41,864 nt of DNA from the NCBI GenBank assembly GCA_029858605.1, contig JAOUET010000001.1, forward strand, positions 1 through 41,864, in the 5' to 3' direction. Origin of the DNA: Coriobacteriia bacterium (GTDB taxonomy: Bacteria > Actinomycetota > Coriobacteriia > Anaerosomatales > JAENZW01). The notes under the pieces are model-generated. The model ran no database searches. It was given only the letters and a program-made list of their open reading frames with translations, and was not told the DNA's origin. Position 1 is the stretch's first letter; every line of letters begins with the position of its first letter. A program made the position numbers and the translations under genes. This document shows, piece after piece, positions 7,643 to 31,127 of the stretch.

Positions 7643-10157
<2,515 letters not shown>

Positions 10158-10766: not shown

Positions 10767-11027
10767 ATCGCCTCGCATCCAAGGAGATCGTGGCGGCGAT
10801 CGCGTCACGCCCCCCGCCCTTGAAGGAGTCGTCCCGCGTTTATTTACCCGGCAGGGAGGTGCGCTAACTCTCACACGGCATCGTGTTCGCGTGCGGTCTC
10901 CAGCTTCGAGCCTGCCGCGTGTCGCGCACGGGGTGGGGCGGTGCGCGACAGCACGGCTGAGAGGGGTACCTACTACGTAGGAGCGCGGCACCGGACACCC
11001 CCAGTTTGTCTGCACCTAGGAGGGCTC

Positions 11028-11396
11028 GTGAGCCAGTACATCGAAGTCATGACGACCGAGGAACTGGCCGAAGGAGAGATGCGGCTCGTCGAGGTAGACG
11101 GCCACAAGATCGTCGTCGCAAGAATAGACGGGGCGTTCTACGCTGCCGACGCACACTGCCCGCACCTTCACGGGAACCTGTGGAAGGGCACTCTGGAGGG
11201 CACTGTCGTCACGTGCCCGCTCCATCACTCGAAGTTCGATCTGACCGACGGACACGTCGTCACCTGGACGGATTTCAAGGGTGCGGTGAGGACGATGGCC
11301 GGGATGGTGCGGCATGCCCGGCCTCTGCGCGTCTACGAGACGATCGTGGACGGCGGGGATCTCTACGTCGGACCTCAGAAAGAACCGCCCGCCTGA
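11028..11396 (+). CDS. Rieske [2Fe-2S] domain protein (ferredoxin-type)
   Basis: CPHLHG ... CPLHHSKF (CxH / CxxH) Rieske ligands. AGGAGGG just upstream of GTG 11028; ATG 11049 is an alternative start. Confidence 0.85.
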   Translation: MSQYIEVMTTEELAEGEMRLVEVDGHKIVVARIDGAFYAADAHCPHLHGNLWKGTLEGTVVTCPLHHSKFDLTDGHVVTWTDFKGAVRTMAGMVRHARPLRVYETIVDGGDLYVGPQKEPPA

Positions 11397-11773: not shown

Positions 11774-11849
11774 GGCCAGGTAGCTCAGCTGGTAGAGCAG
11801 GGGACTGAAAATCCCCGTGTCGGCGGTTCAAGTCCGTCCCTGGCCACCA
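11774..11849 (+). tRNA. tRNA-Phe (anticodon GAA)
   Basis: GGCCAGG/TA/GCTC-AGCTGGTA-GAGC/A/GGGGA-CTGAAAA-TCCCC/GTGTC/GGCGG-TTCAAGT-CCGTC/CCTGGCC/A/CCA. Encoded CCA. Confidence 0.93.
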
Positions 11850-13988: not shown

Positions 13989-15473
13989 CTACAGATACTG
14001 CCAGACGTCGTCGATGCCAGCTTGGGCTGCAGGCACGCACTCTGTGATTCTGCGGACGGACTCGCCTGACTGGGGATCGACGATGCGCAGGTCGGCGACT
14101 TCGGGCTCGTCGAGCCAGCGGCCTGACGGATCGATGAGTACTTTCACGCGTGGATGCAACAGATCGTCGTTGTTGACGCGAAACACAACGGCTGTGGAAC
14201 CGTTGTCCAGCTCTACGACCGCCCCCATCGGGTAGATTCCGAGCATCGCGACGAAGGCTTTGGTGATTGACGGGTCGTAGGCTTTGCCGCGGCCCTGCAT
14301 GAGCACGGCGAGCGCCTTGTCGGGTCGGATCTCGCGACGGAAAGGCCGCCGCGTGGTCATTGCGTCGTAGGCGTCGCAGAGTGCGACGACCTTCGAGAAC
14401 AAGTGCTGTTCCTGCGATGCGGGGACCTCCGGATAGCCCTGCATGTCGTGGCGCATGTGGTGCTCGAACGCAACGACCATGGGCATCTGATCCACGAGCT
14501 GGATTCGCTTGAGCAGATCCGCGCCCTCCTCGGCATGACTCTTCACGATGCCCCACTCGTCACTCGTGAGCGGACCCTGTTTGTTGAGTATGTCTTCCGG
14601 GATGCGAACCTTGCCCAGGTCGTAGAGGAGAGCGGAAAGACCCAGGGAACGCAAGGATTCGGTGTCCAGGCCGAGGGAAGTTCCCAGCGACAGTGCAAGG
14701 ATGCAGACGTTGATGGAGTGATTGAGCGTGTAGGAGTCGTGGCCCTTGATAGCGGTCAGGCCCAGGACTGCAGCCGGGTCGGTGAAGAGGCTGTCGAGAA
14801 GGGAGCTCACGATGCTCTGGAGCGGCTCGACGTCGAAGACCTTTCCCAGCTTGACCTGGGTTTCGAGATCCTTCATTGCGGACATGCCGTTGTCGTACGT
14901 CTCGCGAGCGCGCGCTTTGTTCTCGCGGCCGCGAGCTTCCTTGTCCGTGTCTTCGAGGGTTGTGGTCTCGGCGAGAGAAATCGATGTGGCACCCTTCTGT
15001 TCGAGGAATATCTGAGCCGCCTCGATGTCGTGTATCTTCTCTTCTGCCATGAGATCCACGAGAGCCGCGCCGTCTTCGGCGGCGAAGCCTGCAAGGAACG
15101 CCATTGCCGAGACACCCATCGCAAGCAGGGCCTCGACGAGCCTGCGATACGTCACGCTTTCTTCGGGGAAGACCTGGTTCTCGACGAACAGGGTGCCTTT
15201 GTAGACGTTCAGCGTGACCGATTCGAAGCCGAGGTCGAAAATGGCGTCGACCGCCGCGGCCAGCTCGTCGATGGACTGGGCCACGAGCGGGTGTGTGACG
15301 GGGTACAGACCCGCGTTGGTGTGGGCCACCGCGGTGGTCCGGAGAAGCTCCTTGGCCTTCGCGAGCTTGCTGGCCGTCGAGAAAGGAACTCTCGCAGAAC
15401 CAGCAGTCTGAGCGGCGATTTCCTCGGGGGTCTCGAGTTCGCCTTGATCTTCTGGGCGCGTATCGTCAGTCAC
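13989..15473 (-). CDS. HD-GYP-domain protein (c-di-GMP phosphodiesterase family) with non-canonical YD in place of HD
   Basis: Motifs present: HSINV, LLYDLGK (canonical LLHDIGK), KSHAEEG, EHHMRHDMQGYPE (HHxxxDxxGYP) and CDAYDAMTTRRPF. The GTG start overlaps the upstream gene's stop (GTGA). Confidence 0.85.
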   Translation of the reverse strand: MTDDTRPEDQGELETPEEIAAQTAGSARVPFSTASKLAKAKELLRTTAVAHTNAGLYPVTHPLVAQSIDELAAAVDAIFDLGFESVTLNVYKGTLFVENQVFPEESVTYRRLVEALLAMGVSAMAFLAGFAAEDGAALVDLMAEEKIHDIEAAQIFLEQKGATSISLAETTTLEDTDKEARGRENKARARETYDNGMSAMKDLETQVKLGKVFDVEPLQSIVSSLLDSLFTDPAAVLGLTAIKGHDSYTLNHSINVCILALSLGTSLGLDTESLRSLGLSALLYDLGKVRIPEDILNKQGPLTSDEWGIVKSHAEEGADLLKRIQLVDQMPMVVAFEHHMRHDMQGYPEVPASQEQHLFSKVVALCDAYDAMTTRRPFRREIRPDKALAVLMQGRGKAYDPSITKAFVAMLGIYPMGAVVELDNGSTAVVFRVNNDDLLHPRVKVLIDPSGRWLDEPEVADLRIVDPQSGESVRRITECVPAAQAGIDDVWQYL

Positions 15474-17380
15474 TGCGCATCGACTCCTTGTGGCGTCTCG
15501 GCAACGGTCCGGGACAGTTGATCAGCAGCACGTTGGGCTAGGAATCTCAGCTCCTTGTTCTTGCGGCCGAAAACGAAACGACGGTTCGCCACGCGGCGCA
15601 ATACCGGAAGCGCGTCGGGCGAACCGAGCGATTCGAGGCTCTTGATGACTTCTTTCTTCAGTTCGTGATTCCTCTCGAAGACGTTGATATCCCCCAGGAT
15701 TCGTGTAAGCGGCGGGATAGCTTCGGTCGCGCCTGCACGCCCGATCTCGGCGATGACGTGTCGTTTCGTTTCAGGATCCCAGTGGCCGAGCGCCTTCGTC
15801 AGCGCAGCACGGGAATCTGGGCCAGGCGTCTCGGCGAGCGCGGTGACCGCCTCACGGCGGACCTGCACGTCGAGGTGTTCGAGTGCCTGCTGAAGCACGG
15901 GCACGACTCGCCGGTCGCCAAGGAGTGGCAGCACGCGGACGACAGCGACCGCCGCAGCAGTGTCGCCGCTGCGCAGACGACGGCTGGAAACGGCGAGCAG
16001 CGGCTCTCCGAAGCCCCGCAGCACCGGTCGGAGTAGCGATCGCCCCGCTTCGTTCGCGTGGATGTAGTAGTCGAGCAGCGCCTCCGCGCCGGAGGTTCCC
16101 GCCGCCGAGAGGATCTCCCCCGCGATCGCGGCATCCGCGTCGGTCAGCGGTGCTCGGCAGACGTCCGCAAGTATCTCCGGGTCCTGGAGCGAGTTCCTAG
16201 CCTGCTCGATCTCGAGGGCAAGTGACGCATCCGCGCCCATCTCGTCCAACCGTCGAAGCGCTCCGCGTACGGCCGAAAACGCTCCGTCACGCGCCGCTAT
16301 CGGCAGTGCCTGCCCGATCGCGCGCACGGCTTCCACATCAGCTTTTGAGCGAGACACGGCCACGGTCGTAGTGAGAGCGCGACCCGATGCGAGGGAGGGC
16401 GACGACAACGCGATCTGGCGGTCGAGCTCGGCGCCATCCGCGTCCTCGAAGACGTCGTCGACGATGCGCTCCACGTCTGGCTCGGCGGGCACGCCACAGT
16501 CGGCTTCGCTGCGTGGCGAGGGCGCAAGTAGCATGGCCACCTCGCGCGCCAGCTCGGGCGGCAGCTCCAAGGCCCCCGCGAGCCGATTCTCGTCCGCACC
16601 GGCTTGTTGGGCGACGATGCGGAGGAGGCGCGCAAGAGACGCTGGGTTCATGTGCGTCAGCACGTCCAGGCCACCGGTCATTCGCGAGCCGGTTGTGTCC
16701 GAGCGCAGTCCGTAGGCGAGCAGACGCATTCGGCTCTCTTCATCCAGGTGGAGGAGTGCTTCCGCAATGCGCTCGGTCGCGATGTCTCGAGTGGCGTCTT
16801 CGAGACGATCGATGGCCGCGCGTACGTCATCGACCCCCTGCCCTGCCTGGGCGGTCTGCGACCATTTCTCTGTGGCTGCGAGAACCTCTCGGCCAAGTTC
16901 GTCCAGCGGTGCTGCAGTCAGATCCAAGCCGAGGATACCCTCCTCTGAGGAGGCACGCAGCGTAACCTCGATGACCGCGATGCGACTCACGCCTGCCTGT
17001 GCCAACGCCTCACGAACGCCCTGCTGTCGCACTTGGGTCGGATCCGTGTTCGCAACACCTATGAAGGCATGCGCGTCCGTCTCGGTGAGGTCGGGAGCGA
17101 TGACGAGCTGACCGACCTGCATGGCGTGAAGGGCCTCGGCGAACGCGACGACCTGACTCTGACCAGCCACGATTTCCTGATCACCGACGCGGAATCCGTG
17201 CGGGTCGAGAATGTAGCGCAAGGGACCGATCGAGTTGGTGACCTCGTTCGAACGAGCTATGAAGCGCTGCAGCGCTTCCACCGGGAGGGGGCTCGACGGC
17301 GGATAGAGCCGCGCAGCGTTCGCTGCCGTCGCGAGCAGTCGCACCACTTCTTCGGCCAGAGGATGACCCTCGATTTCCAC
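15470..17380 (-). CDS. HEAT-repeat protein with an N-terminal domain paralogous to that of the downstream HD-GYP protein
   Basis: 636 aa, all-helical. The C-terminal region has HEAT/PBS-lyase-like repeats (VRREAVTALAETPGPDSRAALTKALGHWDPETKRHVIAEIGRAGATEAIPPLTRIL). GGGAG Shine-Dalgarno sequence before GTG 17380. Confidence 0.75.
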   Translation of the reverse strand: MEIEGHPLAEEVVRLLATAANAARLYPPSSPLPVEALQRFIARSNEVTNSIGPLRYILDPHGFRVGDQEIVAGQSQVVAFAEALHAMQVGQLVIAPDLTETDAHAFIGVANTDPTQVRQQGVREALAQAGVSRIAVIEVTLRASSEEGILGLDLTAAPLDELGREVLAATEKWSQTAQAGQGVDDVRAAIDRLEDATRDIATERIAEALLHLDEESRMRLLAYGLRSDTTGSRMTGGLDVLTHMNPASLARLLRIVAQQAGADENRLAGALELPPELAREVAMLLAPSPRSEADCGVPAEPDVERIVDDVFEDADGAELDRQIALSSPSLASGRALTTTVAVSRSKADVEAVRAIGQALPIAARDGAFSAVRGALRRLDEMGADASLALEIEQARNSLQDPEILADVCRAPLTDADAAIAGEILSAAGTSGAEALLDYYIHANEAGRSLLRPVLRGFGEPLLAVSSRRLRSGDTAAAVAVVRVLPLLGDRRVVPVLQQALEHLDVQVRREAVTALAETPGPDSRAALTKALGHWDPETKRHVIAEIGRAGATEAIPPLTRILGDINVFERNHELKKEVIKSLESLGSPDALPVLRRVANRRFVFGRKNKELRFLAQRAADQLSRTVAETPQGVDAQ

Positions 17381-17606: not shown

Positions 17607-18101
17607 GTGAGTCTCAAGACTGATGCGCACTACAGAGCTGTCGCAAGCGATGCGCTGAAGAAGGCGGGCATCGCCGAGCCTCCTATACCCGTCGAACAGC
17701 TCGCCCAGGGCTACGGTATCCCCATGCGCCAGGTCTCATTCCCGTCTTTCTTCTCAGGCGCGATCGTCTACGAGGACGGACTGCCCGTCATCATGATCAA
17801 CGGGGCAAAGGACGAGGCCGTGCGAAGGAAGACGCTTGCGCACCTCCTCGGCCATGTCTTGATTCTGATCGACGATCCCAGCTCGGGATTCCCGCGGAAT
17901 TCGAACCCGGATCATCGTGAAGCCGAGATCGTCGCCCAGGAGCTCTTGACGCCAGAGTTCATGATTCGGGACGAGGCGGCGAGGTGGTTCAACGACTACC
18001 GGTACCTAGCACGTCTCTTCGGCGTTCCCGAGGCTGAGATGATGCGAAGGATGCTCGACATGGGCATCATCAAACAACGGGGCGTCCTCTGGGACTATTG
18101 A
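17607..18101 (+). CDS. ImmA/IrrE-family (DUF955) metallopeptidase-like protein with degenerate HLxxH motif
   Basis: RRKTLAHLLGHVLI aligns with the family's RRFTLAHELGHxxxH, and EAEIVAQELLTPEFM matches the E..AN.FA.ELLMP region. GTG start has GGAG 10 nt upstream. Confidence 0.7.
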   Translation: MSLKTDAHYRAVASDALKKAGIAEPPIPVEQLAQGYGIPMRQVSFPSFFSGAIVYEDGLPVIMINGAKDEAVRRKTLAHLLGHVLILIDDPSSGFPRNSNPDHREAEIVAQELLTPEFMIRDEAARWFNDYRYLARLFGVPEAEMMRRMLDMGIIKQRGVLWDY

Positions 18102-18204: not shown

Positions 18205-19179
18205 ATGCGCACGTCTTACGCGGTCGGTGTCGATGTTGGCGGCACACGAATCGCCGTAGGTCTGGTAGAGCGCAAGGGACGGATCGTCAAAGACATCAAG
18301 ATTCTCACGCCGTCGGCCGGGCCTTTCGCCATCGTTGACGAAGTAATCGACCTCGTACAGGAGGTCTCTGCCGGCGTGCAAGACTCGGAGATAGCCGGCA
18401 TAGGAGTAGGCTTACCGGCGCAGATCGACTTCCTTCGGCAGTCAATCGAGTTCTGCACGAACCTTCCGCTTGCGGGCATAGACGTGCGAGCGCTCGTCAT
18501 GTCGCGCATCAGACACCAGGTGACCCTGGACAACGACGGGAACCTTGCCGCATTCGGCGAGTCCAGGTACGGAGCCGGCAAGGGCGCCCGAGACTTCTTG
18601 ATGCTCACACTGGGGACAGGAGTGGGTGGCGGTCTGTTCGTGAACGGAGAGCCCTATCGGGGATCCCGTGGGCTCGGTGGCGAGATCGGCCACATGGTGG
18701 TGCAGATGGACGGTCCGCCCTGCCCGTGCGGAGGGACGGGGCACATCGAGAGCTACCTTGGCCGGGCAGCCCTGGGCGCCAAAGGCAAGGAGGTTGCCGC
18801 GAGCTATCGCGGCCGCGCCATTCTCGACGAAGCTGGCGGGGACCCAGAGGAGATCACCGCTGAACATGTCGTAGGAGCAGCGCTCAAGGGCGATGAGGCC
18901 GCGGCACAGATCCTCATGGAGGCGGGAGTCATACTCGGAAGGGCTCTCGTCGGGATAGTGAATCTTCTGAATCCGAAGCTGATCGTGATCGGCGGCGGGA
19001 TCGGTGAAGCGTGCCCGTTCATGGTCGAACGGGCGGCCGAAGTGATTGGCGAGGAAGCACTCGCCGGCCGACGCGACGTTCATGTGGTACCTGCCGAACT
19101 CGGCAACGATGCCGGCGTGCTCGGCGCCGCCGCTCTCGCCTTCGACGAATACGACTCGCGCGAGGGGCTTCACCGCTAG
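18205..19179 (+). CDS. ROK-family sugar kinase (probable glucokinase)
   Basis: N-terminal VGVDVGGTRIAVGLV ATP-binding motif, ROK signature GGEIGHMVV, and the zinc motif CPCGGTGHIESY. Confidence 0.85.
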   Translation: MRTSYAVGVDVGGTRIAVGLVERKGRIVKDIKILTPSAGPFAIVDEVIDLVQEVSAGVQDSEIAGIGVGLPAQIDFLRQSIEFCTNLPLAGIDVRALVMSRIRHQVTLDNDGNLAAFGESRYGAGKGARDFLMLTLGTGVGGGLFVNGEPYRGSRGLGGEIGHMVVQMDGPPCPCGGTGHIESYLGRAALGAKGKEVAASYRGRAILDEAGGDPEEITAEHVVGAALKGDEAAAQILMEAGVILGRALVGIVNLLNPKLIVIGGGIGEACPFMVERAAEVIGEEALAGRRDVHVVPAELGNDAGVLGAAALAFDEYDSREGLHR

Positions 19180-19205
19180 TATCGTCGAAGACGAGGGGAG
19201 GCCGT

Positions 19206-20780
19206 GTGGCCGACGATCGCATCACCAGTATCGAGGAACGCGTCGGGATACTTCGCGTGAAGGCTGAGCGCGAGAAGATGGACGTTCCGACCGACGTACT
19301 GGAGTACATCGCTTCGAAGCACACCCTCGCTCACTCTCTCAAAGGCGCTCTGGTGCAAGTCATGGGGTTCGCTGCAGTGAAGCGCACTCCGATCGACATT
19401 GCGCTTGCGCGCAGGGCGCTCGGCGACACCGTCCCGGTCGACAGCGAGGAGACGGCTGCGAGCGAGGAGAGGGCCGATGGAGAGGCTGTGGTCGCGAGTC
19501 GGCAGGTGGCTGTGGGCGTCCCGGACGCCGACGTCGTCGACGAACCCGAAACGCTTGTGCCGGAGACTGTCGCATCGCACGCACCGGACAGGTCGGCCGA
19601 TCTCTCGTCGCCGACACAGCCATCGCTGGATCTGTCCGCCGGCTTTGCGATATCCGAGCCGATGCCGAGACGGCGTGTCTCGCGCGTCTTCTTCACCCCG
19701 ATGCGCACTGAGGGTAAGAAGAGTCTCGTCACCCGTGCAGGTCGACTGCTGGAGCGCGCGGGCCTCGCTGACGCCATCGAGGACGACGACCTCGTGGCGA
19801 TCAAGCTGCACTTCGGCGAGCAAGGAAACACCGGCTTCGTGAATCCGGTGTTCCTGCGTGAGGTCGTGGCGAAGGTTCGCGACGCTGGTGGCAAGCCGTT
19901 CCTTACGGACTCCAACACTCTCTACCGCGGCCAGCGCTTCAATGCTGTGGACCACGTCGCGTGTGCGGTGCACAACGGGTTCTCCTACGCGACAGTAGAT
20001 GCACCCGTCATTATCGCGGACGGTCTCGACGGCCGAGAGGCAGTCGACGTCCCGGTTTCCGGCAAGCACTTCGACACGGTGCGACTAGGCGCGGCCGGCG
20101 TTCACGCCGATGCGATGGTGGTCGTCACTCATGTGAAGGGTCACGAGGCAACCGGTTTCGGTGGTGCGCTGAAGAATGTCGGCATGGGGCTCGGTTGCCG
20201 CAGCGCAAAGCAGAGGATGCATTCGGACTTCATGCCGCAGCCGAATGCCGAGAAGTGCACGGGATGCGACCGATGCGTGAAGTGGTGTCCCGTGTATGCG
20301 ATAGCCGTGGGCCCCGATCGAGTCGCGCGCGTCGATTACGATCTGTGCTACGGGTGTGGCGAGTGCGTAGCAGCCTGCCCACACGGCGCAATCGCCATCC
20401 AGTGGAAGACTTCACCCCACGCCATTCAGGAGAAGATCGTCGAGCATGTGGCTGGTGCCCTCTCGGACAAGGCCGGCAAGGTCCTGTTTCTCTCCTTCGT
20501 GACCAACGTCTCGCCGGACTGTGACTGCTGGCACTTCTCGGACGCGAGCATCGTTCCCGATGTGGGCGTGCTTGCCTCGGCGGACATAGTCGCGATCGAT
20601 CAGGCCGCCTACGATCTCGTTGCGAAGGCACCGGGATTGGCCGGCACGCGCGGGGAGGGCCTGTCTGCGGGAACCGACAAGTTCGCCGAGGTTACCGGCA
20701 TCGACGGAACGATCGCGATGAAGTATGCGGAGGAGATGGGACTCGGTACTCGCGAGTACGAACTCGAGACGGTTGAGTGA
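19206..20780 (+). CDS. DUF362-domain protein with an inserted 2x[4Fe-4S] ferredoxin domain and a DnaA domain-IIIb (lid)-like N-terminal module
   Basis: GGGGAGG lies 5 nt upstream of GTG 19206. CTGCDRCVKWCP and CYGCGECVAACP cluster motifs sit inside a DUF362-like body (AIKLHFGE..., THVKGHEATGFGGALKN). The N-terminal 75 aa resemble the DnaA AAA+ lid. The 19011 start overlaps the ROK gene and was rejected. Confidence 0.8.
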   Translation: MADDRITSIEERVGILRVKAEREKMDVPTDVLEYIASKHTLAHSLKGALVQVMGFAAVKRTPIDIALARRALGDTVPVDSEETAASEERADGEAVVASRQVAVGVPDADVVDEPETLVPETVASHAPDRSADLSSPTQPSLDLSAGFAISEPMPRRRVSRVFFTPMRTEGKKSLVTRAGRLLERAGLADAIEDDDLVAIKLHFGEQGNTGFVNPVFLREVVAKVRDAGGKPFLTDSNTLYRGQRFNAVDHVACAVHNGFSYATVDAPVIIADGLDGREAVDVPVSGKHFDTVRLGAAGVHADAMVVVTHVKGHEATGFGGALKNVGMGLGCRSAKQRMHSDFMPQPNAEKCTGCDRCVKWCPVYAIAVGPDRVARVDYDLCYGCGECVAACPHGAIAIQWKTSPHAIQEKIVEHVAGALSDKAGKVLFLSFVTNVSPDCDCWHFSDASIVPDVGVLASADIVAIDQAAYDLVAKAPGLAGTRGEGLSAGTDKFAEVTGIDGTIAMKYAEEMGLGTREYELETVE

Positions 20781-20812: not shown

Positions 20813-21994
20813 ATGGACTACGGGCGCGCCATCGGTGATGCGTTCCGCATGACGTTCACGTCCCGGGCCCAGTGGATCTGGGCGTTGATCTGGATGGCGA
20901 TCAACATCGCGGTCGTTGTGGTGTTCTACGCGATTCTCTTCGTTGTGGTCTTCGGCATCGTTGGCCTCTCGGCGGGTGCGGCATTCGATCCTGCCGCCGC
21001 TTCTAGCGACTCGGCCGCGTTCGAGAACGTCGGTGCGGGTATATGCGGGGCTTTCTTGATCGGTGCCTTGTTGGTGATGGCTTTGATCGTCGCGAGCACG
21101 TACGTCAGCGCGTGGTTGAGCGCGGGACTTGTGAGCATCGCCGCGCGGACCGCAGGGGGGCACCCGCCTCGGCTATCGGAGAGCTGGAGTATGGCAAGAG
21201 CCGATGCCAAGCGGGTTTGGGGTATCCAGTGGCTGTCCCTCTACCTGCCCGGATTCGTGATCGGCGTCGTGCTCTACATAGTCTTCGGCGTGGTCATGGT
21301 CGCCGCCGGCTTCGCGGCAGCCCCTTCGGGCGAGCTGACGCCCGATGCGCTGGGGCGCATGTTCCTGGGATTCGGCGTCTTCGGCCTGATACTCATGGTG
21401 GTCTACGGACTGCTGTACGCATGGTCGGAACTGTCGGTGCGCCATGCCGTTCTGGGCCGAATGCGTGCAACTCAGAGTCTAGGCGCGGGGATGCGGTCGT
21501 TCACTTCCCGGTTCGGCGGTACCATTCTCATTCTTCTCGTGATTGGCGCCGTCATGGTGGCGTGGTACGCGATCAGCTTCGGCGTTGGTTTCGTGCAGGC
21601 TCAGATTCCAGACATGCGAGTCTACTGGGTCGCGTACCTCTCCTGGCTTGTCATCACGCTTGTCGCGAGCATGTTGCTGGGGATTCTCTTCTCGAATCTG
21701 TGGACGATGTTCGGGTTCCAGGTGATCGCCGCATCGCCGCCTCCGGTGGCCCGGGCGGGCTACGCGCCTGCCGCCGCGTCGCCACCGCCACCTGCGCCGG
21801 GCGTTGTCGGCACCGGGGGCGTGCCGCAACCGCCGCATCCGCCGCAGCCACCGGAGCCGCCGCAGTACGCGCAGGGGCTGCCGCTGGCGCAGCCACAACC
21901 CGAGTCGTCTGACGTGGCGCGGCAGGAAGACCAGCCCGCAACCGTTGCCGACACCGAATCCGAGGAGGCGTCCGGCGAGTTCTTCGACGCCTAG
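20813..21994 (+). CDS. polytopic membrane protein with Pro-rich C-terminal tail
   Basis: GGGAGAG Shine-Dalgarno sequence. About 6-7 TM helices, then PPPVARAGYAPAAASPPPPAPG...PQPPHPPQPPEPPQY and an acidic end. No family recognised with confidence. Confidence 0.7.
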   Translation: MDYGRAIGDAFRMTFTSRAQWIWALIWMAINIAVVVVFYAILFVVVFGIVGLSAGAAFDPAAASSDSAAFENVGAGICGAFLIGALLVMALIVASTYVSAWLSAGLVSIAARTAGGHPPRLSESWSMARADAKRVWGIQWLSLYLPGFVIGVVLYIVFGVVMVAAGFAAAPSGELTPDALGRMFLGFGVFGLILMVVYGLLYAWSELSVRHAVLGRMRATQSLGAGMRSFTSRFGGTILILLVIGAVMVAWYAISFGVGFVQAQIPDMRVYWVAYLSWLVITLVASMLLGILFSNLWTMFGFQVIAASPPPVARAGYAPAAASPPPPAPGVVGTGGVPQPPHPPQPPEPPQYAQGLPLAQPQPESSDVARQEDQPATVADTESEEASGEFFDA

Positions 21995-22042
21995 GTGTGG
22001 GACCGTGCAAGGCGCATCGTGCCTTCGGCAAGGAACGGAGAG

Positions 22043-22897
22043 ATGAGCGCAGAGGGTCGCCTGCTCGTATGTGCGACGCCCATCGGAAACCTGGGCGACG
22101 TGACTCTGCGCGTCCTCGACGCACTGCGTGAGGCGGACGCTGTCGCTGCCGAAGACACGCGAGTGACGCGCAAGCTATTGTCGCGCTACGACATACATAC
22201 GCCGCTCGAGCGCTATGACGACAACACTGCCGCAGAGCGCACTCCGCGTCTCGTGGCGCGCGTTGCCGCCGGCGAGACGATCGCGCTGGTATCCGACGCA
22301 GGGACCCCGGGCATCTCGGATCCAGGTGCGGCTCTCATTCGGGCTTGCCTGGACTCAGGGCTAGACGTCGAGGTCCTTCCCGGCGCGAGTGCGATCATCG
22401 CCGCGCTCGTCGCGAGCGGCTTGCCGACACACGCGTTCTACTTCGGCGGTTTCCTGCCGAGGAAGTCGGCACAGCGGAAGCGTTTGCTGGAAGGATTGGC
22501 CTCGCTTGACGCCACGCTGCTCTTCTACGAGTCCGCTCGCCGTGTGGTGGCGACGCTCGAAGACGTGGCCGAAACGCTCCCGGGACGCTTCGTGGCCGTA
22601 GCTCGGGAGCTCACGAAGATGCACGAGGAGGTCGTGAGAGGGCCGGTCGCCGAAGTGGCGAAGGCATTCTCTGAGCGCGAAGTGAAGGGCGAGGTTGTTC
22701 TCGCGATTGGTCCATCATTGGCGGGCGAGGTCACCGAGCCGGACGTCGAAGCGATTGCCGAACGCATCGACGCTCTGGTTGTCGGGGGCTCCTCGATGAA
22801 GGACGCGGTCAGGCAGGTGGCTTCCGATACCGGCCTGCCGCGCAATCTCGTCTACGACATCGCGCACGAAAGGCGGACCGACCGGCCATCAAGGTGA
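22043..22897 (+). CDS. rsmI: 16S rRNA (cytidine1402-2'-O)-methyltransferase RsmI
   Basis: LLVCATPIGNLGDVTLRVLDALREADAVAAEDTRVTRKLL is the characteristic RsmI N-terminus. ATG 22043 is preferred; GTG 21995 is possible. Confidence 0.88.
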   Translation: MSAEGRLLVCATPIGNLGDVTLRVLDALREADAVAAEDTRVTRKLLSRYDIHTPLERYDDNTAAERTPRLVARVAAGETIALVSDAGTPGISDPGAALIRACLDSGLDVEVLPGASAIIAALVASGLPTHAFYFGGFLPRKSAQRKRLLEGLASLDATLLFYESARRVVATLEDVAETLPGRFVAVARELTKMHEEVVRGPVAEVAKAFSEREVKGEVVLAIGPSLAGEVTEPDVEAIAERIDALVVGGSSMKDAVRQVASDTGLPRNLVYDIAHERRTDRPSR

Positions 22898-22954
22898 TGC
22901 CGATCCGGACAGCCCTCGCGATACTGGCACCGTGACGATTCGGCCCGCGTGCGG

Positions 22955-23197
22955 CTAAGAAGTTCTGATCGTCCGCACGCAGTCCGAGCAGATCGGTCTG
23001 TCCTTGACTGTTGCGATGTCGTTGGGACTCCCGCAGATAGAGCAGACATCCTTGTGCTTCTCGAGGATGATGCGGTTTCCCTCGACCATGATCGCCATCG
23101 GGTCCTTCACGTTGATGCCGAGCGTGCGGCGAAGCTCCATGGGTATGACGATGCGGCCCAGGTCGTCGACTCGTCTTACGATTCCGGTGTCTCGCAT
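22955..23197 (-). CDS. abrB: AbrB/SpoVT-family transition-state-regulator-like DNA-binding protein with C-terminal CxxC...CxxC
   Basis: MRDTGIVRRVDDLGRIVIPMELRRTLGI closely matches the AbrB N-terminal swapped-hairpin domain. AAGGGG Shine-Dalgarno sequence before ATG 23197. Confidence 0.88.
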   Translation of the reverse strand: MRDTGIVRRVDDLGRIVIPMELRRTLGINVKDPMAIMVEGNRIILEKHKDVCSICGSPNDIATVKDRPICSDCVRTIRTS

Positions 23198-23314
23198 GAC
23201 AGCCCCTTTCACCATCGCTCGAACCAAGCCGCTACGATACGAAAAGCGGTATCATCGCGACGGAGTGCAACCAGACACTGCCAAGATTACCCAATTGACG
23301 GAGTCTCGTAACGC

Positions 23315-24868
23315 ATGAGCAGGCAGTCGTTCTACCTGACCACACCTATCTACTACGTGAACGCGGTACCCCACCTGGGTACCGCGTACACAACCGTCGC
23401 GTGCGATGCACTCGCTCGCTATCGGCGGATGACCGGACACGACACCTTCTTCTTGACCGGTCTCGACGAGCACGGCCAGAAGGTGGCTCAGGCGGCCGAG
23501 GAGAATGGCATGAGCCCCCAGGAGTGGTGCGACTCGATCGCGCCACGGTACCGCGAGGTCTGGGAGATGCTCCGCATCTCGAACGACGATTTCATCCGCA
23601 CGACTCAGGAGCGCCACAAGCGCGGCGTGCAGGCCTTCTGGCAGAAGCTCCACGACGACGGGTATCTGTACCAGGGTCACTACGAGGGCTGGTACTGCGT
23701 GCCGGATGAGACCTATTGGGCCGAGGGCCAGCTCGTCGACGGCAAGTGTCCTACCTGTGGTCGCGATGTCGACTTCATCCGAGAAGACAACTGGTTCTTC
23801 AAGCTCTCCGAGTTCCAGGACGAGCTACTCGCCCTATACGAGGAGCGGCCGCAGTTCGTTCGGCCCGAGAAGCGTCGCAACGAGGTCGTCTCCTTCGTCA
23901 AGTCGGGTTTGAAGGACTTGTCGATCTCGCGCACGACTTTCTCTTGGGGCGTGCCGCTGCCGTTCGCCGAGAATCATGTGACCTACGTCTGGATCGATGC
24001 TCTGCTCAACTACGTCACCGCGGTGGGCTACGGCGATCCAGAGAAGGAGATCCAGTTCGAACGACGCTGGCCCGCACAGGTCCACTTCGTCGGCAAAGAC
24101 ATCATTCGTTTCCACTGCGTGATCTGGCCGGCCATGCTCATGGCCGCCGGTCTTCCTTTGCCGGAGATGGTGTTCGCACATGGCTTCCTGCTCACCAAGG
24201 GCGAGAAGATGAGCAAGTCCAAGGGCAACGTGATGTCCCCCCAAGATCTGGTGGAGCGCTTCGGCGTGGACGCCTACCGCTACTACTTCCTGCGCGACGT
24301 GCGCTTCGGCGAGGACGGTTCTATCTCACTGGAGTCCATGGTCCAGCGATACAACGGGGATCTCGCAAACGATTGGGGCAACCTGTGTTCGCGCCTGTTC
24401 AACATGACCGAGAAGTACGTCTCAGGCGTAGTCCCGGCTCCGCCGACAGGTCCGCCCACCGACGCCGATGCGACGCTTCGGGCCCTCGCCGGCTTCCTTC
24501 CCGAGAAGTACGAAGCGGCGATGGAGAAGCTCGACTACGGCGCCGCGCTGGAAGCCACATGGGACCTCATCAAGGACGCAAACCGCTATATCGAGCAGGA
24601 AGCACCGTGGAACTTGGCGAAGGACGAGTCAAAGCGGGCGCGACTCGAGACGGTTCTGTTCAACGCGCTTGAAGCGGTGCGGATAGCCGCACTCTTCTGT
24701 GCCCCTGTTATGCCGGACACTTCGGCAGAGGTTTGGGCGCGGCTCGGTCTCGGGGACATACACGACGTCTTCGACATCGCGGCCGAGGGAGAGTGGGGCA
24801 GACTGCCCCAAGGAAGCCGCGTGACGAAAGGCGAACCGCTGTTTCCGCGCATATATGAGGACGTGTAG
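23315..24868 (+). CDS. metG: methionine--tRNA ligase (short form)
   Basis: YYVNAVPHLGTAYT (HIGH region), KMSKSKGN, and the CPTCGRD zinc knuckle. Confidence 0.93.
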   Translation: MSRQSFYLTTPIYYVNAVPHLGTAYTTVACDALARYRRMTGHDTFFLTGLDEHGQKVAQAAEENGMSPQEWCDSIAPRYREVWEMLRISNDDFIRTTQERHKRGVQAFWQKLHDDGYLYQGHYEGWYCVPDETYWAEGQLVDGKCPTCGRDVDFIREDNWFFKLSEFQDELLALYEERPQFVRPEKRRNEVVSFVKSGLKDLSISRTTFSWGVPLPFAENHVTYVWIDALLNYVTAVGYGDPEKEIQFERRWPAQVHFVGKDIIRFHCVIWPAMLMAAGLPLPEMVFAHGFLLTKGEKMSKSKGNVMSPQDLVERFGVDAYRYYFLRDVRFGEDGSISLESMVQRYNGDLANDWGNLCSRLFNMTEKYVSGVVPAPPTGPPTDADATLRALAGFLPEKYEAAMEKLDYGAALEATWDLIKDANRYIEQEAPWNLAKDESKRARLETVLFNALEAVRIAALFCAPVMPDTSAEVWARLGLGDIHDVFDIAAEGEWGRLPQGSRVTKGEPLFPRIYEDV

Positions 24869-24898
24869 GGGTCGGGATCGCACGACAAGGAGAACCGG

Positions 24899-25765
24899 AT
24901 GCGCAAAGGACCCGCCGAACTGCCCAGCCTCGGTGCCCAGATCGCCGATACCCATGCTCATCTCGTCATGTTGGACGATCCTGCGGGTGCACTCGAGCGC
25001 TCGACTACGGCCGGCGTCATGTTCATCGTTTCCGTTGCCGATGCAACCGAGAGTCCGGCTGCCACATACGGTGCTTTGCCGAAATGGCACGAGGAGGCAC
25101 AACGGCGCCTCGACCAGTGGGCGATCCCTCACGGCGAGCCGCCGGCCGTGCGCATCGTCATCGGTGTGCATCCACACAACGCCAACGATTTCGATGACGA
25201 GGCGGTGGAGGCGATCGCCACATATGCAAAGGATCCGCGAACTGTCGGCCTCGGGGAGATCGGCATCGATCTCTACTACGAGCATTCGCCGGCGGAGGTG
25301 CAGACCGAGGTCTTCCGCACGCAGCTGGCGATGGCTCACGAGTTGGACCTGCCTGCCGTGGTGCATCTTCGAGACGCATTCGAACAGGGAATCGCGGTTC
25401 TTCAGGACGTGGGATTGCCGAAGGCGGGCTGTGTGCTGCACTGTTTCACGGGTGACCGGGACATGATGGAGAGACTCGTCGATCTCGGTTGCCACGTGTC
25501 GTTCCCCGGTGTCGTCACCTTCCAGAAGGCCGATGCGCTGCGCGAAGCGGCCGCAGCGGTCCCGCTGGACAGGCTGCTTGTCGAGACGGACGCTCCTTTC
25601 CTGGCCCCGGTCCCGTTCCGAGGGAAGACGAACGAGCCGGCCTGGGCCACGTTCACGGTTGAGACGATCGCGAACCTTCGCAGCGAAGACACCGTGGATG
25701 TCGCAAAAGCCACGATCGGCAACGCACGTCGCCTGTTCAAGGACCCGGTTCCAAAGGGGGCCTAG
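24899..25765 (+). CDS. tatD: TatD-family metal-dependent hydrolase/DNase
   Basis: IADTHAHL..., EIGIDLYY and VVHLRDA motifs. Position after metG as in Bacillus yabD. Confidence 0.88.
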   Translation: MRKGPAELPSLGAQIADTHAHLVMLDDPAGALERSTTAGVMFIVSVADATESPAATYGALPKWHEEAQRRLDQWAIPHGEPPAVRIVIGVHPHNANDFDDEAVEAIATYAKDPRTVGLGEIGIDLYYEHSPAEVQTEVFRTQLAMAHELDLPAVVHLRDAFEQGIAVLQDVGLPKAGCVLHCFTGDRDMMERLVDLGCHVSFPGVVTFQKADALREAAAAVPLDRLLVETDAPFLAPVPFRGKTNEPAWATFTVETIANLRSEDTVDVAKATIGNARRLFKDPVPKGA

Positions 25766-25768
25766 TCG

Positions 25769-26386
25769 ATGGCGGACGATCCCCGTTCGCGCCCCGAGAC
25801 CCCCCTTGTCGTTTGCATTGCCGGCAGCCCGAGACGCCATGGCAACAGCGAGCAGATGCTCGATGCTTGCATTCGCGGCATCGAAGCCGCGGGCGGGGTG
25901 GCGGAGCGGATCGCGGTTGTCGAATACGGGATCAAGCCTTGTCAGGGCTGCAACGCCTGCTCGCTTACGGGTGAATGCGTAGTCCGCGACCGAATGCGAG
26001 AGATCTACCCGCGGCTGGACGCAGCTGACGCCATCGTGGTCGCGTCGCCTGTCTACTTCGCCACTGTGCCCGCCGTTCTCAAGGCGCTCTACGACAGGTG
26101 TCAGCCGTATTGGGCGCGCATCCACGTGCTGAAGGAGCCGCCCGCAGGTCCCAAGCGCCCGGGTGCGCTCCTTCTCGTTCGTGGTGGGGGTGACTCATTC
26201 GGATTCCAGGCGGCCGTCTACACGACGAAGAGCGTGTTCGCGGTACTCGGAGTCGAATGTGTCGAGCAGGTCAAGGTCGAGGGGCCGGACTCGCCGAGCG
26301 ACATCGGCAGACATCCTGATGCGTTGATGCGGGCAGAGGAAGTGGGGCGGAGCATCGTTGCGAGGGTCAGGGGGGTGGGAGGTTAG
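25769..26386 (+). CDS. iron-sulfur flavoprotein (NADPH-dependent FMN reductase / flavodoxin-like fold)
   Basis: IAGSPRRHGNSE, ASPVYFATVPAVLKALYDR, and the compact cluster motif CQGCNACSLTGEC (Cx2Cx2Cx5C) typical of Isf proteins. Confidence 0.8.
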   Translation: MADDPRSRPETPLVVCIAGSPRRHGNSEQMLDACIRGIEAAGGVAERIAVVEYGIKPCQGCNACSLTGECVVRDRMREIYPRLDAADAIVVASPVYFATVPAVLKALYDRCQPYWARIHVLKEPPAGPKRPGALLLVRGGGDSFGFQAAVYTTKSVFAVLGVECVEQVKVEGPDSPSDIGRHPDALMRAEEVGRSIVARVRGVGG

Positions 26387-26444
26387 GCCCGACTCCTACG
26401 GCCGTCGCTCGACCCGCCATGCCGTACCGTGGCGAAGTGCGGGT

Positions 26445-26474
26445 TTGGTGAGCGATTCCGCCTTGGGCTATAAT
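26445..26474 (+). promoter_or_regulatory. candidate sigma-70-type promoter of the yabE-like gene
   Basis: TTGGTG (26445-26450), an 18-nt spacer, then TATAAT (26469-26474), ~48 nt upstream of the ATG. Confidence 0.45.
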
Positions 26475-26521
26475 CTCGTTCCGTCACGTTGACGCATCGT
26501 TGACGACCATGAGAGGGGAGC

Positions 26522-27568
26522 ATGGAGCGACAGCCGGCTGGCCCGGCGCGATTCCTGAGACCCCAGTACATAGTCACAGTTCTCATCGCAGCAGCTATCA
26601 TCGTCCTGAGCGTTGCCGGATTCGTGGGGGCCCAAAAGGCGGTGACCGTCGTCGTTGACGGCGAGTCCCGTTCCGTGAACACACAGTCGAACACCGTCGC
26701 CGCGCTCCTGGCGGAAGCCGGGATCGCGGTTGGCGATGGCGATGTCGTGAACCCACCGCTCGAGGCGGAGCTCTCCGACGGCATGACTGTCGTGGTTCGC
26801 TATGCCACGCCCGTCGTGCTGAGCCTGCAGGGCGGAGACGTGGAAGTCTCAGTGGTTGGCGACACTGTTGCGGACGCTCTGGTTGCCGCGGGCCTCGATC
26901 CGTCATGCGGCACCGTGACCGAGCCGTGCCTCGACGCACCGCTCTCGCCTGGCATGGTCGTGCGGGTCAGCGATGTCTTCGTGCGAGTACAGCAGGAAGA
27001 GGTCGAGATTCCCTTTGAGACCACGGCGAAGGACGACGACACGATGAGTCAGGGGTCCCGAAGCGTCGTTACCGAGGGTGCCCCCGGCAAGATTCTCCGT
27101 GTATATCGCGTTCTGGTGACGAACGGCGTGGAAGGCCCGCGCACGCTGACTGCTGAAGAGATCGTGCTCGAACCGGTCGACGAGGTCGTCGCCGTCGGCA
27201 CGAAGCGCGCTTCGAGTCATCTGGTGGCCTCTCGCAGTGGGTCGAGTTCATCGAGCTCGGCGGCTAAGAGTGCGACTGCGCCGACGTCGGGAAAGACCAT
27301 GCGTGTCGCGACGACCGCCTACGCTCCCGGTGTCGGCGGAGTCGGTTGGCGTACCGCGACGGGCATGAAGGCGGGATACGGAATCGCCGCAGTCGACCCC
27401 AGCGTGATCCCGCTTGGGACGCGAATGTACGTGCCTGGCTACGGCTACGCGCTGGCGGCTGACACCGGCGGCGCGATTGTCGGCAATCGAGTCGACCTTT
27501 GCTTTGACACGGCTGCCGAAGCGTATGCGTGGGGTCGCCGAACGGTGACCATCACTATCCTCCCCTAG
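26522..27568 (+). CDS. yabE: YabE-like cell-wall protein (DUF348 repeats + G5 + 3D/RlpA-like domain)
   Basis: N-terminal TM anchor and repeated DG....V.T...TV...L...GI (DUF348) units. A G5-like segment (VTEGAPGKILRVYRV) is followed by a C-terminal 3D domain (TAYAPG...GIAAVDPSVIPLGTRMYVPGYGYALAADTGGAIVGNRVDLCF). Confidence 0.85.
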   Translation: MERQPAGPARFLRPQYIVTVLIAAAIIVLSVAGFVGAQKAVTVVVDGESRSVNTQSNTVAALLAEAGIAVGDGDVVNPPLEAELSDGMTVVVRYATPVVLSLQGGDVEVSVVGDTVADALVAAGLDPSCGTVTEPCLDAPLSPGMVVRVSDVFVRVQQEEVEIPFETTAKDDDTMSQGSRSVVTEGAPGKILRVYRVLVTNGVEGPRTLTAEEIVLEPVDEVVAVGTKRASSHLVASRSGSSSSSSAAKSATAPTSGKTMRVATTAYAPGVGGVGWRTATGMKAGYGIAAVDPSVIPLGTRMYVPGYGYALAADTGGAIVGNRVDLCFDTAAEAYAWGRRTVTITILP

Positions 27569-27576
27569 GGAGGGCC

Positions 27577-28440
27577 GTGACGTATTCACGACTGGCGTCG
27601 CCTCGCGCGACGATCGACCTGCTTTCAGCGCACGGCCTTCACACGCGGAAGTCTCTCGGGCAGCACTTTCTGGTAGACGACAACGTCGTAGGCCGCATAC
27701 TCAGGCTTGCAGGATTGTCGGGAGACGAAGTCGTTGTCGAGGTGGGGCCCGGAATCGGCACTCTCACCGTTGCCCTTTGCGAGGCGGCACGGAGGGTCGT
27801 GGCCATCGAGTGCGACCCCAGATTCGCGAGCTTACTTGCGAGCGAGGTGCGATCCGATGCTCTGCACGTGATAGAGGGTGACGCACTAGACGTCGATCCT
27901 TCGGCGATCTGCGAACCCTTCGGCGAACCGGACGCGCTGGTCGCGAATCTCCCTTATTCGGTTGCGGCCACGCTCGTCCTGCAGTACCTGGAGACCCTCC
28001 CGTCATTGCGGTACGCCGTCGTCATGGTTCAGGCGGAGGTCGCCGATCGGATGTCGGCCGAGCCGAACACAAAGGCCTACGGAGCGTACACGGTCAAACT
28101 GCATCTACGCGCGCAGCCGAAGACGCGCTTCGCTGTTTCGCGATCCTGTTTCCTGCCGCCTCCACGAGTGGATTCGGCAGTGCTGCGCCTGGAGAGGCGC
28201 CAGGACGCGGAGGCGCCGCAGACGATCGCCGCTGCTTCCAGAATGGCCGAAGCAGCATTCGCTCAGCGCCGTAAAACGGTCCGCAACTCGCTCAAGGCCT
28301 GCTTCCGCACGGACATCGGGAGGGTAGATGCCGTGTTGTCGTCCGCCGGCATCGACGGATCGAGGCGAGCGGAAGCACTTCGCGTCGCCGAGTTTGTCGC
28401 CCTTGGTCGCGAAGCACTTGAATTAGGCCTTCTACCTTGA
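27577..28440 (+). CDS. rsmA: 16S rRNA (adenine1518/1519-N6)-dimethyltransferase RsmA/KsgA
   Basis: KSLGQHFLVD, the EVGPGIGTLT SAM motif and NLPYSVA. GTG 27577 is the only start after GGAGG. Confidence 0.9.
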   Translation: MTYSRLASPRATIDLLSAHGLHTRKSLGQHFLVDDNVVGRILRLAGLSGDEVVVEVGPGIGTLTVALCEAARRVVAIECDPRFASLLASEVRSDALHVIEGDALDVDPSAICEPFGEPDALVANLPYSVAATLVLQYLETLPSLRYAVVMVQAEVADRMSAEPNTKAYGAYTVKLHLRAQPKTRFAVSRSCFLPPPRVDSAVLRLERRQDAEAPQTIAAASRMAEAAFAQRRKTVRNSLKACFRTDIGRVDAVLSSAGIDGSRRAEALRVAEFVALGREALELGLLP

Positions 28441-28465
28441 GTTTTGTCGATTCTTGACGTATACT
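28437..28465 (+). promoter_or_regulatory. candidate promoter of veg
   Basis: TTGAGT (28437-28442), a 17-nt spacer, then TATACT (28460-28465), in an AT-richer patch ~30 nt upstream of the veg ATG. Confidence 0.4.
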
Positions 28466-28493
28466 ACTTCGTTGGACCTTGAAGGAGGAGTAT

Positions 28494-28775
28494 ATGAATC
28501 TTCAGAGTCAGCACGAGGTCGTGGGGCGGATTCGCAGTGACCTCGAGGCGCTGATGGGAACCCGCATGCGCTTGCGGGCGAACATGGGTCGCTCGAAGAT
28601 AGTCGAGCGAGAAGGCATCTTGGAACAGACCCATCCCAGCTTGTTTGTGGTGAAGGTGGATGAGAAGCGGAATCGAAAGGCTCGTGTGTCCTATAGCTAT
28701 GTGGATGTTCTGACGGGAACCGTCGAACTGAGCCACTGCGAGAGCGGAGAGAATCTCCTGCCCTGGCTCAACTAG
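28494..28775 (+). CDS. veg: Veg protein (DUF1021)
   Basis: LRANMGRSKIVEREGILEQTHPSLFVV...RVSYSYVDVLTGTVEL parallels Bacillus Veg ([27 protein letters not shown]...RVSYSYADILTETVEL). GGAGGAG Shine-Dalgarno sequence. Confidence 0.9.
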   Translation: MNLQSQHEVVGRIRSDLEALMGTRMRLRANMGRSKIVEREGILEQTHPSLFVVKVDEKRNRKARVSYSYVDVLTGTVELSHCESGENLLPWLN

Positions 28776-28802
28776 CCCGGGCGAAGACAGCAGTCAACCT
28801 GA

Positions 28803-28826
28803 ACGCGGGGCCTTCTGGCCCCGCGT
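28803..28826 (+). terminator. perfect 10-bp GC-rich hairpin after veg
   Basis: ACGCGGGGCC-TTCT-GGCCCCGCGT. No U-tract follows. Confidence 0.45.
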
Positions 28827-28850
28827 CGCGTATGGAGGGAAACGACCGAA

Positions 28851-30520: not shown

Positions 30521-30595
30521 GATATCTGGGACTCACGGTGTCAACTGTGTCGGGGGTAGGGACCCTCGCCCGGCACAAGGGGGAGAAGCACATAC

Positions 30596-30895: not shown

Positions 30896-30961
30896 CCTCT
30901 TTCCCGAAGCCGTCTCGCCCAAGGCAAGCTCGCACCTGTTTCGCGTCCCGCTCCCCCACGT

Positions 30962-30990
30962 TTGACGCTGCCGGATGCCCTCCCTACACT
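30962..30990 (+). promoter_or_regulatory. candidate promoter for tRNA-Gln (and possibly glmU-prs)
   Basis: TTGACG (30962-30967), a 17-nt spacer, then TACACT (30985-30990), ending 10 nt before the tRNA 5' end. Confidence 0.5.
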
Positions 30991-31000
30991 CATGATGCTC

Positions 31001-31075: not shown

Positions 31076-31127
31076 ACCTGCTTTCTCCAGGGCCTGGATC
31101 CGCAGGTGAAAGGGCGAAGGGGTCGCG

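Follow-up and report, generated by a model that had tools for sequence, protein, structure and literature searches.

A DnaA domain IIIb-derived head and a motif-bearing disordered tether on a DUF362 iron-sulphur protein of Coriobacteriia

Why should an iron-sulphur (Fe-S) protein begin with what looks like a piece of the bacterial replication initiator? The question is raised by a gene in a stretch of 41,864 nucleotides (nt) of DNA from a Coriobacteriia bacterium (Actinomycetota; Coriobacteriia; Anaerosomatales; JAENZW01), contig JAOUET010000001.1 of NCBI GenBank assembly GCA_029858605.1, referred to below as the window. The gene encodes a protein of 524 amino acids (aa) made up of an N-terminal segment, a linker and a DUF362 body with two cysteine motifs for [4Fe-4S] clusters, and a first-pass annotation, drawn up by reading the sequence by eye, took the N-terminal segment for the lid (domain IIIb) of the AAA+ module of DnaA, weighing whether it is a captured dnaA fragment that serves as a protein-interaction handle or a decaying remnant translated as an extension. 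We find that residues 1-76 are a real homologue of DnaA domain IIIb, and that the protein as a whole is a bona fide DUF362 / 2x[4Fe-4S] protein to which a DnaA-IIIb-derived domain, unannotated until now, and a tether with a conserved motif have been added. What the added parts may do, and with which partner, is weighed further on.

The homology is carried by sequence profiles and by predicted structure. The first ~75 residues, which the first-pass annotation had quoted exactly as they are encoded and had aligned with the end of DnaA domain III, match the NCBIfam DnaA profile TIGR00362, residues 8-75 pairing with profile positions 270-338 of 437 at E=5.3e-11 when a 78-aa fragment is searched alone; neither the full protein (38.7 bits) nor the fragment (42.2 bits) reaches the curated cut-off of 343.9 bits. 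A profile made from the N-termini of 18 family members and run against the Protein Data Bank (PDB) finds residues 277-345 of Bacillus subtilis DnaA (8bv3/8btg) at E=4e-14, followed by Thermotoga maritima DnaA (7e-4) and, weakly, by Hda. The AlphaFold2 (AF2) model of residues 1-77 taken alone consists of four helices (residues 9-22, 29-38, 42-59 and 65-71) with a predicted local distance difference test (pLDDT) score of 91.7, and residues 9-71 reach 95-98 in the full-length model as well as in the isolated module. When the isolated module is submitted to Foldseek, its top PDB match is again B. subtilis DnaA (8bv3_A; query-normalised template modelling score, TM(query), 0.84; root-mean-square deviation, rmsd, 1.0 Å; 37% identity over 68 columns), and the next matches are the lids of T. 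maritima DnaA, other DnaA proteins, RuvB and Hda, so that the module has the AAA+ lid fold and its four-helix bundle superposes best on a DnaA lid. A word-indexed protein search with the lid profile gave no matches, and an exhaustive search with a hidden Markov model (HMM; HMMER) was used instead, which returned 2312 matches at E<=1e-3 among 1.84 billion representative proteins, the family itself scoring 104-116 bits. Beyond the family, the best 150 of these 2312 comprise a few more diverged proteins that begin with the module, others in which the match falls at about residues 270-520, and short fragments; within those 150, all proteins checked that have the lid N-terminally are DUF362 fusions or truncated pieces of them, and the others checked are DnaA.

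Homology to one domain does not make the protein an initiator. It is not a DnaA, for none of the four defining features tested is present: the lid begins at residue 1, there is no PF00308 match at E<=10 to an ATPase base (Walker A/B, box VII Arg finger), and no Pfam match in the protein to domain IV (Bac_DnaA_C, PF08299), as the reading by eye had anticipated in noting that neither the Walker A/B core nor domain IV is there. The current Pfam Bac_DnaA model (162 positions) ends before the lid, so that the silence of PF00308 is uninformative for the lid itself, and it was TIGR00362 that bore out the proposed DnaA-profile match of the N-terminus. Nor is the protein an Hda: the Hda profile TIGR03420 matches in the lid region only, at 15.5 bits and E=0.0094, short of its cut-off of 194.8 bits. 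Against Pfam the first 190 residues give nothing significant, the best match being Hda_lid at E=0.12. To our knowledge, an isolated AAA+ lid from a replication initiator, held under selection on an unrelated enzyme, has not been described.

That the module belongs to the protein is indicated by several lines of evidence, in the window and outside it. The frame that holds position 19206 on the + strand is open from 19011 to the stop codon at 20778-20780; the JGI and Logan gene calls for the source contig both give 524 aa, and in ~58 long homologues, genes called independently open at the corresponding residue. No stop codon interrupts the single frame that joins lid and body in 14 of 14 independent lid-bearing loci, that is, those of 12 among 80 species-representative genomes, a further long-form locus (L001) and the window. 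A Shine-Dalgarno sequence (GGAGG, AGGAGG or GGGAGG) lies 5-9 nt before the ATG or GTG of the lid in each of the ten other loci examined, making 11 of 11 with the window. The GC content at codon positions 1/2/3 is as coding-like in the lid (0.68/0.41/0.75) and linker (0.76/0.53/0.76) as in the body (0.67/0.46/0.76), and pairwise differences per site among the lids at these positions, 0.35/0.27/0.57, favour third positions. Moreover, R12, K19, R22, E23, L45 and K46 are invariant or nearly so in relatives whose lids are 33-99% identical. By these sequence criteria, the N-terminal module is, to all appearances, translated and under selection. That it should instead be a remnant, untranslated or in decay, or a product of misassembly, with the real protein starting at Met153, can be considered only barely credible: the view has on its side that the product annotated on the source contig by the NCBI Prokaryotic Genome Annotation Pipeline (PGAP) has 372 aa and that Pfam does not recognise the N-terminus, and it is countered by the continuous frame in 14 of 14 independent genomes, the canonical Shine-Dalgarno sequence before each lid start examined, the coding-like codon-position GC and substitution pattern, the invariant residues, the confident predicted fold, and the recurrence of the architecture across different assemblies and sources. 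Decay, misassembly and an internal start were accordingly rejected, and with them the alternative that the first-pass annotation had named, a decaying remnant translated as an extension, and the translation start at the internal Met near 19660 that it had listed among the grounds for refutation.

The discrepancy with the public record follows from the choice of start. The PGAP entry for the same 41864-bp contig, MDH4138964.1, has neither lid nor linker, and a start at Met153 leaves untranslated 482 nt of conserved, coding-like sequence. The architecture is invisible to standard pipelines because the NCBI start is the internal Met and Pfam is blind to the module, so that the public annotation of the source contig hides it and a domain search misses it too. 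Some database homologues listed as short may likewise be start-calling artefacts of the kind seen in MDH4138964.1, for which reason long and short forms were re-classified from the DNA.

Comparison of 70 fused lids with 138 DnaA lids tells what has been kept of the initiator and what has been altered. The DnaA-conserved positions common to the fused lids are R12 together with a retained structural core, L16, K19, A20, V31, A36, L45, G47-A48-L49, A68 and L72. Gone are DnaA residues around the nucleotide site (T11, A14, R43, E44, R51 and L58): T11 is replaced by E/D, R51 by N/Q and L58 by R, and the conservation of A14, the adenine-pocket Ala, is lost. The sensor-II Arg, found in 137 of 138 DnaA lids at position 43, is never R among the 70 fused lids (Q in 41, T in 19, H in 5, N in 3 and V in 2), and the segment H-S-L-K-G-A-L singled out by the first-pass annotation is indeed what the window encodes. 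At position 46 the charge is reversed, with K in 70 of 70 fused lids versus E, 97% conserved, in 134 of 138 DnaA lids, and the fused lids thereby have invariants of their own, E/D11, R22 and K46. According to the paper on the structure of Hda with the clamp, the adenine pocket is lined by helices 1 and 3 of the lid, which also bear sensor II; the former nucleotide-facing surface of the lid has therefore been re-purposed and not merely relaxed. With no ATPase base, the sensor-II Arg lost, the adenine-pocket Ala unconserved and an invariant surface of its own gained, the head cannot sense nucleotide.

Between head and body runs a tether, acidic and Pro-rich over ~80 residues just as the first-pass annotation had described it, with a net charge of -11, a composition rich in A/V/S/P/E, and AF2 pLDDT below 50 across residues 81-150. 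Linkers of the family (n=70) span 55-402 aa, a ~7-fold range with a median of 109, cannot be aligned, and consist of 20% P, 18% A and 13% E. Their only conserved feature is [ST]-L-F, a textbook example of a short linear motif within a disordered linker: the LF dipeptide occurs in 61 of 70 linkers versus 7.5 +/- 2.4 (maximum 16) in 1000 composition-preserving shuffles, within the logo x-[TAP]-[GDPA]-[TS]-L-F-[AVE]-[PAE]-[PE]. The subclade of the window has the variant Q-P-[ST]-L-D-L (QPTLDL in P0002 and P0004, QASFDL in P0005), and some linkers carry tandem copies of the motif, for example DTLFVAEAPSLFEE.

The body is in no doubt as to family. PF04015 (DUF362) matches residues 197-470 over its entire length (profile 1-200/200) at 169.2 bits, with a gathering threshold of 24, and E=1.5e-49. 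Cluster binding is predicted for the ferredoxin insert by Fer4 (45.7 bits; cut-off 21.1) and Fer4_7 (41.1 bits; cut-off 27), and the two CxxCxxCxxxCP motifs noticed at first reading fall at C351/354/357/361-P362 and C381/384/387/391-P392, all eight Cys being invariant. A sequence search of the body against the PDB gives ferredoxin-domain matches only, namely polyferredoxins and RnfB. The fold speaks of another relationship: Foldseek matches the body to lactate/malate racemases of the LarA superfamily (2yjg, 6c1w, 5huq; E=1.5e-6 and weaker, TM 0.3-0.38, identity 11-14%), and Lar_N scores 15.7 bits on residues 297-349, below its cut-off of 23.3, so that the LarA relationship is one of fold and of a sub-threshold Lar_N match. 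DUF362 and DUF2088, the family of the LarA N-terminal domain, stand in one Pfam clan, CL0471 (PMC11770544). The invariant residues of the body, H309, K311, H313, K323, H339, C253 and P-D-C-D-C-W (437-442), suggest a metal or cofactor site besides the two clusters. The spacing of H313-K323-H339 recalls that of LarA His174, Lys184 and His200 and hints at a possible tethered cofactor or metal site.

How the head came to the enzyme can be read, in outline, from its distribution. Relatives were gathered by scanning a full-length alignment across genomes, after which lids were located by six-frame hmmsearch. Of 80 species-level genomes, 12 have the lid-DUF362 architecture, and ~60 protein clusters drawn from independent assemblies and sources show it as well, which settles in the affirmative whether it recurs beyond this assembly; the whole appendage is absent from syntenic orthologues in the remaining 68 of 80. 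Those short orthologues, of ~368 aa, have no such N-terminus, in keeping with the remark that typical DUF362 proteins lack one. In the short-form locus L002 the start of the DUF362 gene overlaps the stop of the ROK kinase gene before it, in most short loci a stop closes the frame no more than ~40 codons ahead of the body, and no lid was found within 5 kb of the short loci. Long and short forms share the gene order HD_5(-), HEAT(-), M78 peptidase, ROK, DUF362, membrane protein, rsmI, abrB(-), metG, tatD, FMN reductase, yabE-like, ksgA, veg, ispE, and they are orthologues.

Identity of the window lid is 29-54% to DnaA lids (median 42%) and 33-99% to the other fused lids (median 48%). Among DnaA lids with a name, the closest comes from an actinomycete; closeness to actinobacterial DnaA lids was judged from database representatives. 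A neighbour-joining (NJ) tree places 63 non-redundant fused lids in a single clade, separate from 128 DnaA lids, with a bootstrap of 70/100. This separation indicates a single old capture from dnaA and not a recent paralogue, and it lends substance to the idea of a captured dnaA fragment, now specified as a IIIb homologue nearest to lids of actinobacterial-type DnaA and dated as ancient by the fused-lid clade, the genome's own dnaA lying outside the window. In the NJ tree of the bodies, lid-bearing forms occur in at least four clades, the deepest included (P0127, P0128, P0184 and P0270, with linkers of 215-402 aa). Since the lid has a single origin and the clades that bear it are scattered, the simplest history, on NJ trees for the losses, is probably that the appendage is ancestral and that the whole unit was then cleanly and repeatedly lost. 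The appendage is accessory, orthologues with bodies 71-79% identical doing without the head. The coordinates of all these elements are collected in Table 1.

Table 1. Positions in the window of the lid-DUF362 gene, its parts and the gene directly upstream.
Feature	Position	Strand	Basis or remark
ROK-family kinase gene	18205..19179	+	directly upstream; Pfam ROK E=1e-56
Shine-Dalgarno-like GAGGGGAGG	19193..19201	+	ends 4 nt 5' of lid start codon; sequence reading
524-aa open reading frame, lid + linker + DUF362 body	19206-20780	+	GTG start 19206
GTG start codon of 524-aa protein	19206..19208	+	in frame with body
DnaA domain IIIb (AAA+ lid)-derived four-helix bundle, residues 1-76	19206..19433	+	TIGR00362, PDB profile search, AF2, Foldseek
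Remodelled box VIII / sensor-II segment H43-S-L-K-G-A-L (DnaA: R-E-L-E-G-A-L)	19332..19352	+	residue counts, fused versus DnaA lids
Acidic Pro/Ala/Val/Ser-rich intrinsically disordered linker, residues 77-158	19434..19679	+	AF2 pLDDT, composition
E115-T-L-V-P-E, possible degenerate second copy of T-L-F-[AV]-P motif	19548..19565	+	sequence versus logo; weak
Short linear motif Q138-P-S-L-D-L (to L143)	19617..19634	+	window-subclade variant of family [ST]-L-F
Internal ATG (Met153)	19662..19664	+	start in NCBI annotation (MDH4138964.1, 372 aa)
DUF362 body, LarA-like fold, residues 159-524	19680..20777	+	PF04015; body HMM match begins at nt 19680
Inserted 2x[4Fe-4S] ferredoxin domain, residues 347-398	20244..20399	+	Fer4, Fer4_7, Fer4_21

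What, then, could such an appendage be for? A folded head, a disordered tether of variable length, a conserved motif, no co-varying site on the body and repeated loss together suggest an appendage that acts in trans at two sites, and we put forward, as a tentative first choice among the readings, that head and linker motif form a docking device for which the replication proteins are the leading candidate partner. The device, lying outside the catalytic core, would either recruit the Fe-S enzyme to its partner or let the partner regulate the enzyme; the head could mimic the IIIb of a neighbouring protomer on the IIIa face of DnaA, and a cleft that binds peptides, for instance the one on the sliding clamp, could take up the motif. 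In B. subtilis DnaA, the IIIa:IIIb interface between adjacent protomers is functionally critical (PMC10721633), and because such contacts exist and an orphan IIIb could fill a IIIa face, DnaA would be the most economical guess at a partner. A clamp-like motif would fit the replication theme by analogy with Hda. The published clamp-binding consensus is QL[S/D]LF or Q-phi-x-L-x-L, in which positions 1, 4 and 5 matter most; QPSLDL of the window fits it at Q1, L4 and L6, the subclade likewise has Q at position 1 (QPTLDL, QASFDL), S/T/D stands at position 3 in 57 of 67 family instances (mostly Thr against the Ser/Asp of the consensus, with S-L-D-L in the window), and the family has the L-F at positions 4-5 or L-x-L at positions 4-6 that the consensus calls for. 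The most specific form of the proposal, a two-site replication adaptor whose head caps or joins a DnaA oligomer at IIIa while the motif binds the beta clamp and so brings a redox-active, LarA-fold Fe-S enzyme to oriC or the replisome, we regard as unlikely; if true, it would couple the initiation of replication to redox or metabolic state, with a logic like that of Hda or YabA, in Coriobacteriia.

A number of observations weigh against a replication partner. The surface of DnaA that faces nucleotide and the neighbouring protomer is the one most changed in the fused lids (R43, E44, E46 and R51 are all replaced), and simple mimicry of the IIIb:IIIa contact is for that reason not assured. Q at position 1 of the clamp consensus occurs in 0 of 67 instances of the majority [ST]LF motif, and position 2 is aliphatic in only 4 of the 67 and Pro in the window, so that a clamp-binding motif was considered and not adopted as a finding, the resemblance being kept as a lead. 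The genes next door, for a ROK kinase and a membrane protein, speak of metabolism more than of replication. Any role of the appendage must be non-essential, since it has been lost repeatedly and is dispensable in most orthologues, and the window contains no second lid or dnaA copy with which the head could be compared as with its cognate initiator. Some of these same facts suit a different reading, possible but on the doubtful side, in which the four-helix bundle served simply as a handy stable fold and the head, neofunctionalised for docking or oligomerisation, has no remaining link to DnaA, with a metabolic, electron-transfer or membrane partner, or a means of self-assembly by head on motif in trans: the former nucleotide- and neighbour-facing surface has been rebuilt with K46 and R22, the conserved neighbours are the ROK kinase and a multi-pass membrane protein and not replication genes, the majority motif is without the Gln of clamp-binding motifs, and the tandem motifs of some linkers would suit multivalent assembly. 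It is countered by the near-equal similarity of fused lids to DnaA lids and to one another (the medians given above), from which much of the DnaA-like surface seems to have been retained, and the present data point to no alternative partner. A head that works within its own protein, as a regulatory lid on the Rossmann-like DUF362 body, gating the active site or the Fe-S domain and kept nearby by the tether, is improbable. AAA+ lids do pack on an alpha/beta base, which the N-terminal half of DUF362/LarA also is, and the head is always in cis with DUF362 in the N-terminal-lid proteins checked among the best 150 of 2312 matches; yet, conservative S/A, T/S and I/V swaps apart, no body column differs between proteins with the head and those without it, which disfavours an intramolecular docking site, a disordered tether of 55-402 aa far exceeds the need, and the short orthologues manage without the head.

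Set beside known systems, the lid-DUF362 protein combines familiar parts in an unfamiliar order. From DnaA IIIb (8bv3 and 8btg, residues 277-345) the head has the same four-helix bundle and significant sequence homology, whereas it stands alone at the N-terminus, without domains I, II, IIIa and IV, and is followed by a tether and an enzyme. With Hda it may share the logic of joining DnaA-homologous AAA+ parts to a short peptide for clamp binding, which reads QLSLPL in the E. coli protein, and QPSLDL of the window resembles the hexapeptide class Q-phi-x-L-x-L. Hda differs, however, in having a complete AAA+ base with Walker motifs, Arg finger and sensor-II Arg, where lid-DUF362 has only a lid and no such Arg; its motif precedes the AAA+ domain, an order that is reversed in lid-DUF362; and it has no enzyme domain. 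YabA of Firmicutes, a small folded module with a flexible linker that contacts both initiator and clamp, offers an analogy only, as it consists of a coiled coil and a Zn domain and has no sequence or fold relationship to lid-DUF362. The canonical short DUF362 / COG2768 orthologues ('uncharacterized Fe-S center protein'), such as that of the Anaerosomatales metagenome-assembled genome GCA_030017365.1, have the same Fer4 insert, invariants and gene neighbourhood and neither lid nor tether. The LarA superfamily of nickel-pincer-nucleotide racemases and epimerases supplies the best structural matches of the body, but lacks both the inserted 2x[4Fe-4S] domain and PDCDCW.

Whatever its partner, the head shows that DnaA domain IIIb can stand on its own as a module and still be of use. 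Should the partner prove to be DnaA or the clamp, the protein would represent a new kind of connection from Fe-S or redox metabolism to replication control, in a large, mostly uncultured class of Actinomycetota for which we know of no described DnaA regulator. Should it be another, head and motif would still be a ready handle to the partners of the DUF362 family, which is widespread and has no known function.

The neighbourhood of the gene is itself conserved. The ROK-family sugar kinase gene, which is probably in the same operon and co-transcribed with the lid-DUF362 gene, is also the neighbour at L001, where the DUF362 protein has the long form, and at L002, where it has the short one. Further upstream, at 13989-17380 on the - strand, lie genes for an HD_5 (HD-GYP-type) protein and a 636-aa HEAT-repeat protein, described as a conserved convergent pair, followed at 17607-18101 (+) by a gene for an M78/ImmA-like peptidase; all three stand upstream of ROK-DUF362 in both L001 and L002. 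Downstream, the product of the gene at 20813-21994 (+) is a multi-pass membrane protein of 393 aa whose C-terminal tail is acidic and rich in Pro, and to which no Pfam family matches. In relatives, too, this slot is filled by a membrane protein, L001 having two genes there, of which the second matches DUF7544. Rfam has no match near the lid-DUF362 locus.

The region from 21995 to 34791 contains rsmI, abrB-like(-), metG, tatD, FMN reductase, yabE-like (DUF348-G5-3D), ksgA, (veg), ispE, a tRNA, glmU, prs, L25/ctc and pth. This order mirrors that of the origin-proximal B. subtilis genes yabC-abrB-metS-yabD-yabE-ksgA-veg-ispE-gcaD-prs-ctc-spoVC. The B. subtilis yabA gene lies a few genes upstream of rsmI-abrB-metS, and the lid-DUF362 gene lies one gene upstream of rsmI-abrB-metG, which may be coincidence.

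Elsewhere in the window, Rfam finds three tRNA genes only, at 1959-2032, 11774-11846 and 31001-31072 (+). Genes for the alpha, gamma and beta subunits of F1 ATP synthase occupy 5467-10157 (+), and the longest reading frame for alpha has 719 aa, its nucleotide-binding domain beginning at residue 356 after ~200 residues of extra N-terminal sequence; the start of this long N-terminus may have been set wrongly, or a delta/OSCP-like region may be fused to it. A gene for a small Rieske [2Fe-2S] protein lies at 10941-11396 (+), downstream of the ATP synthase genes.

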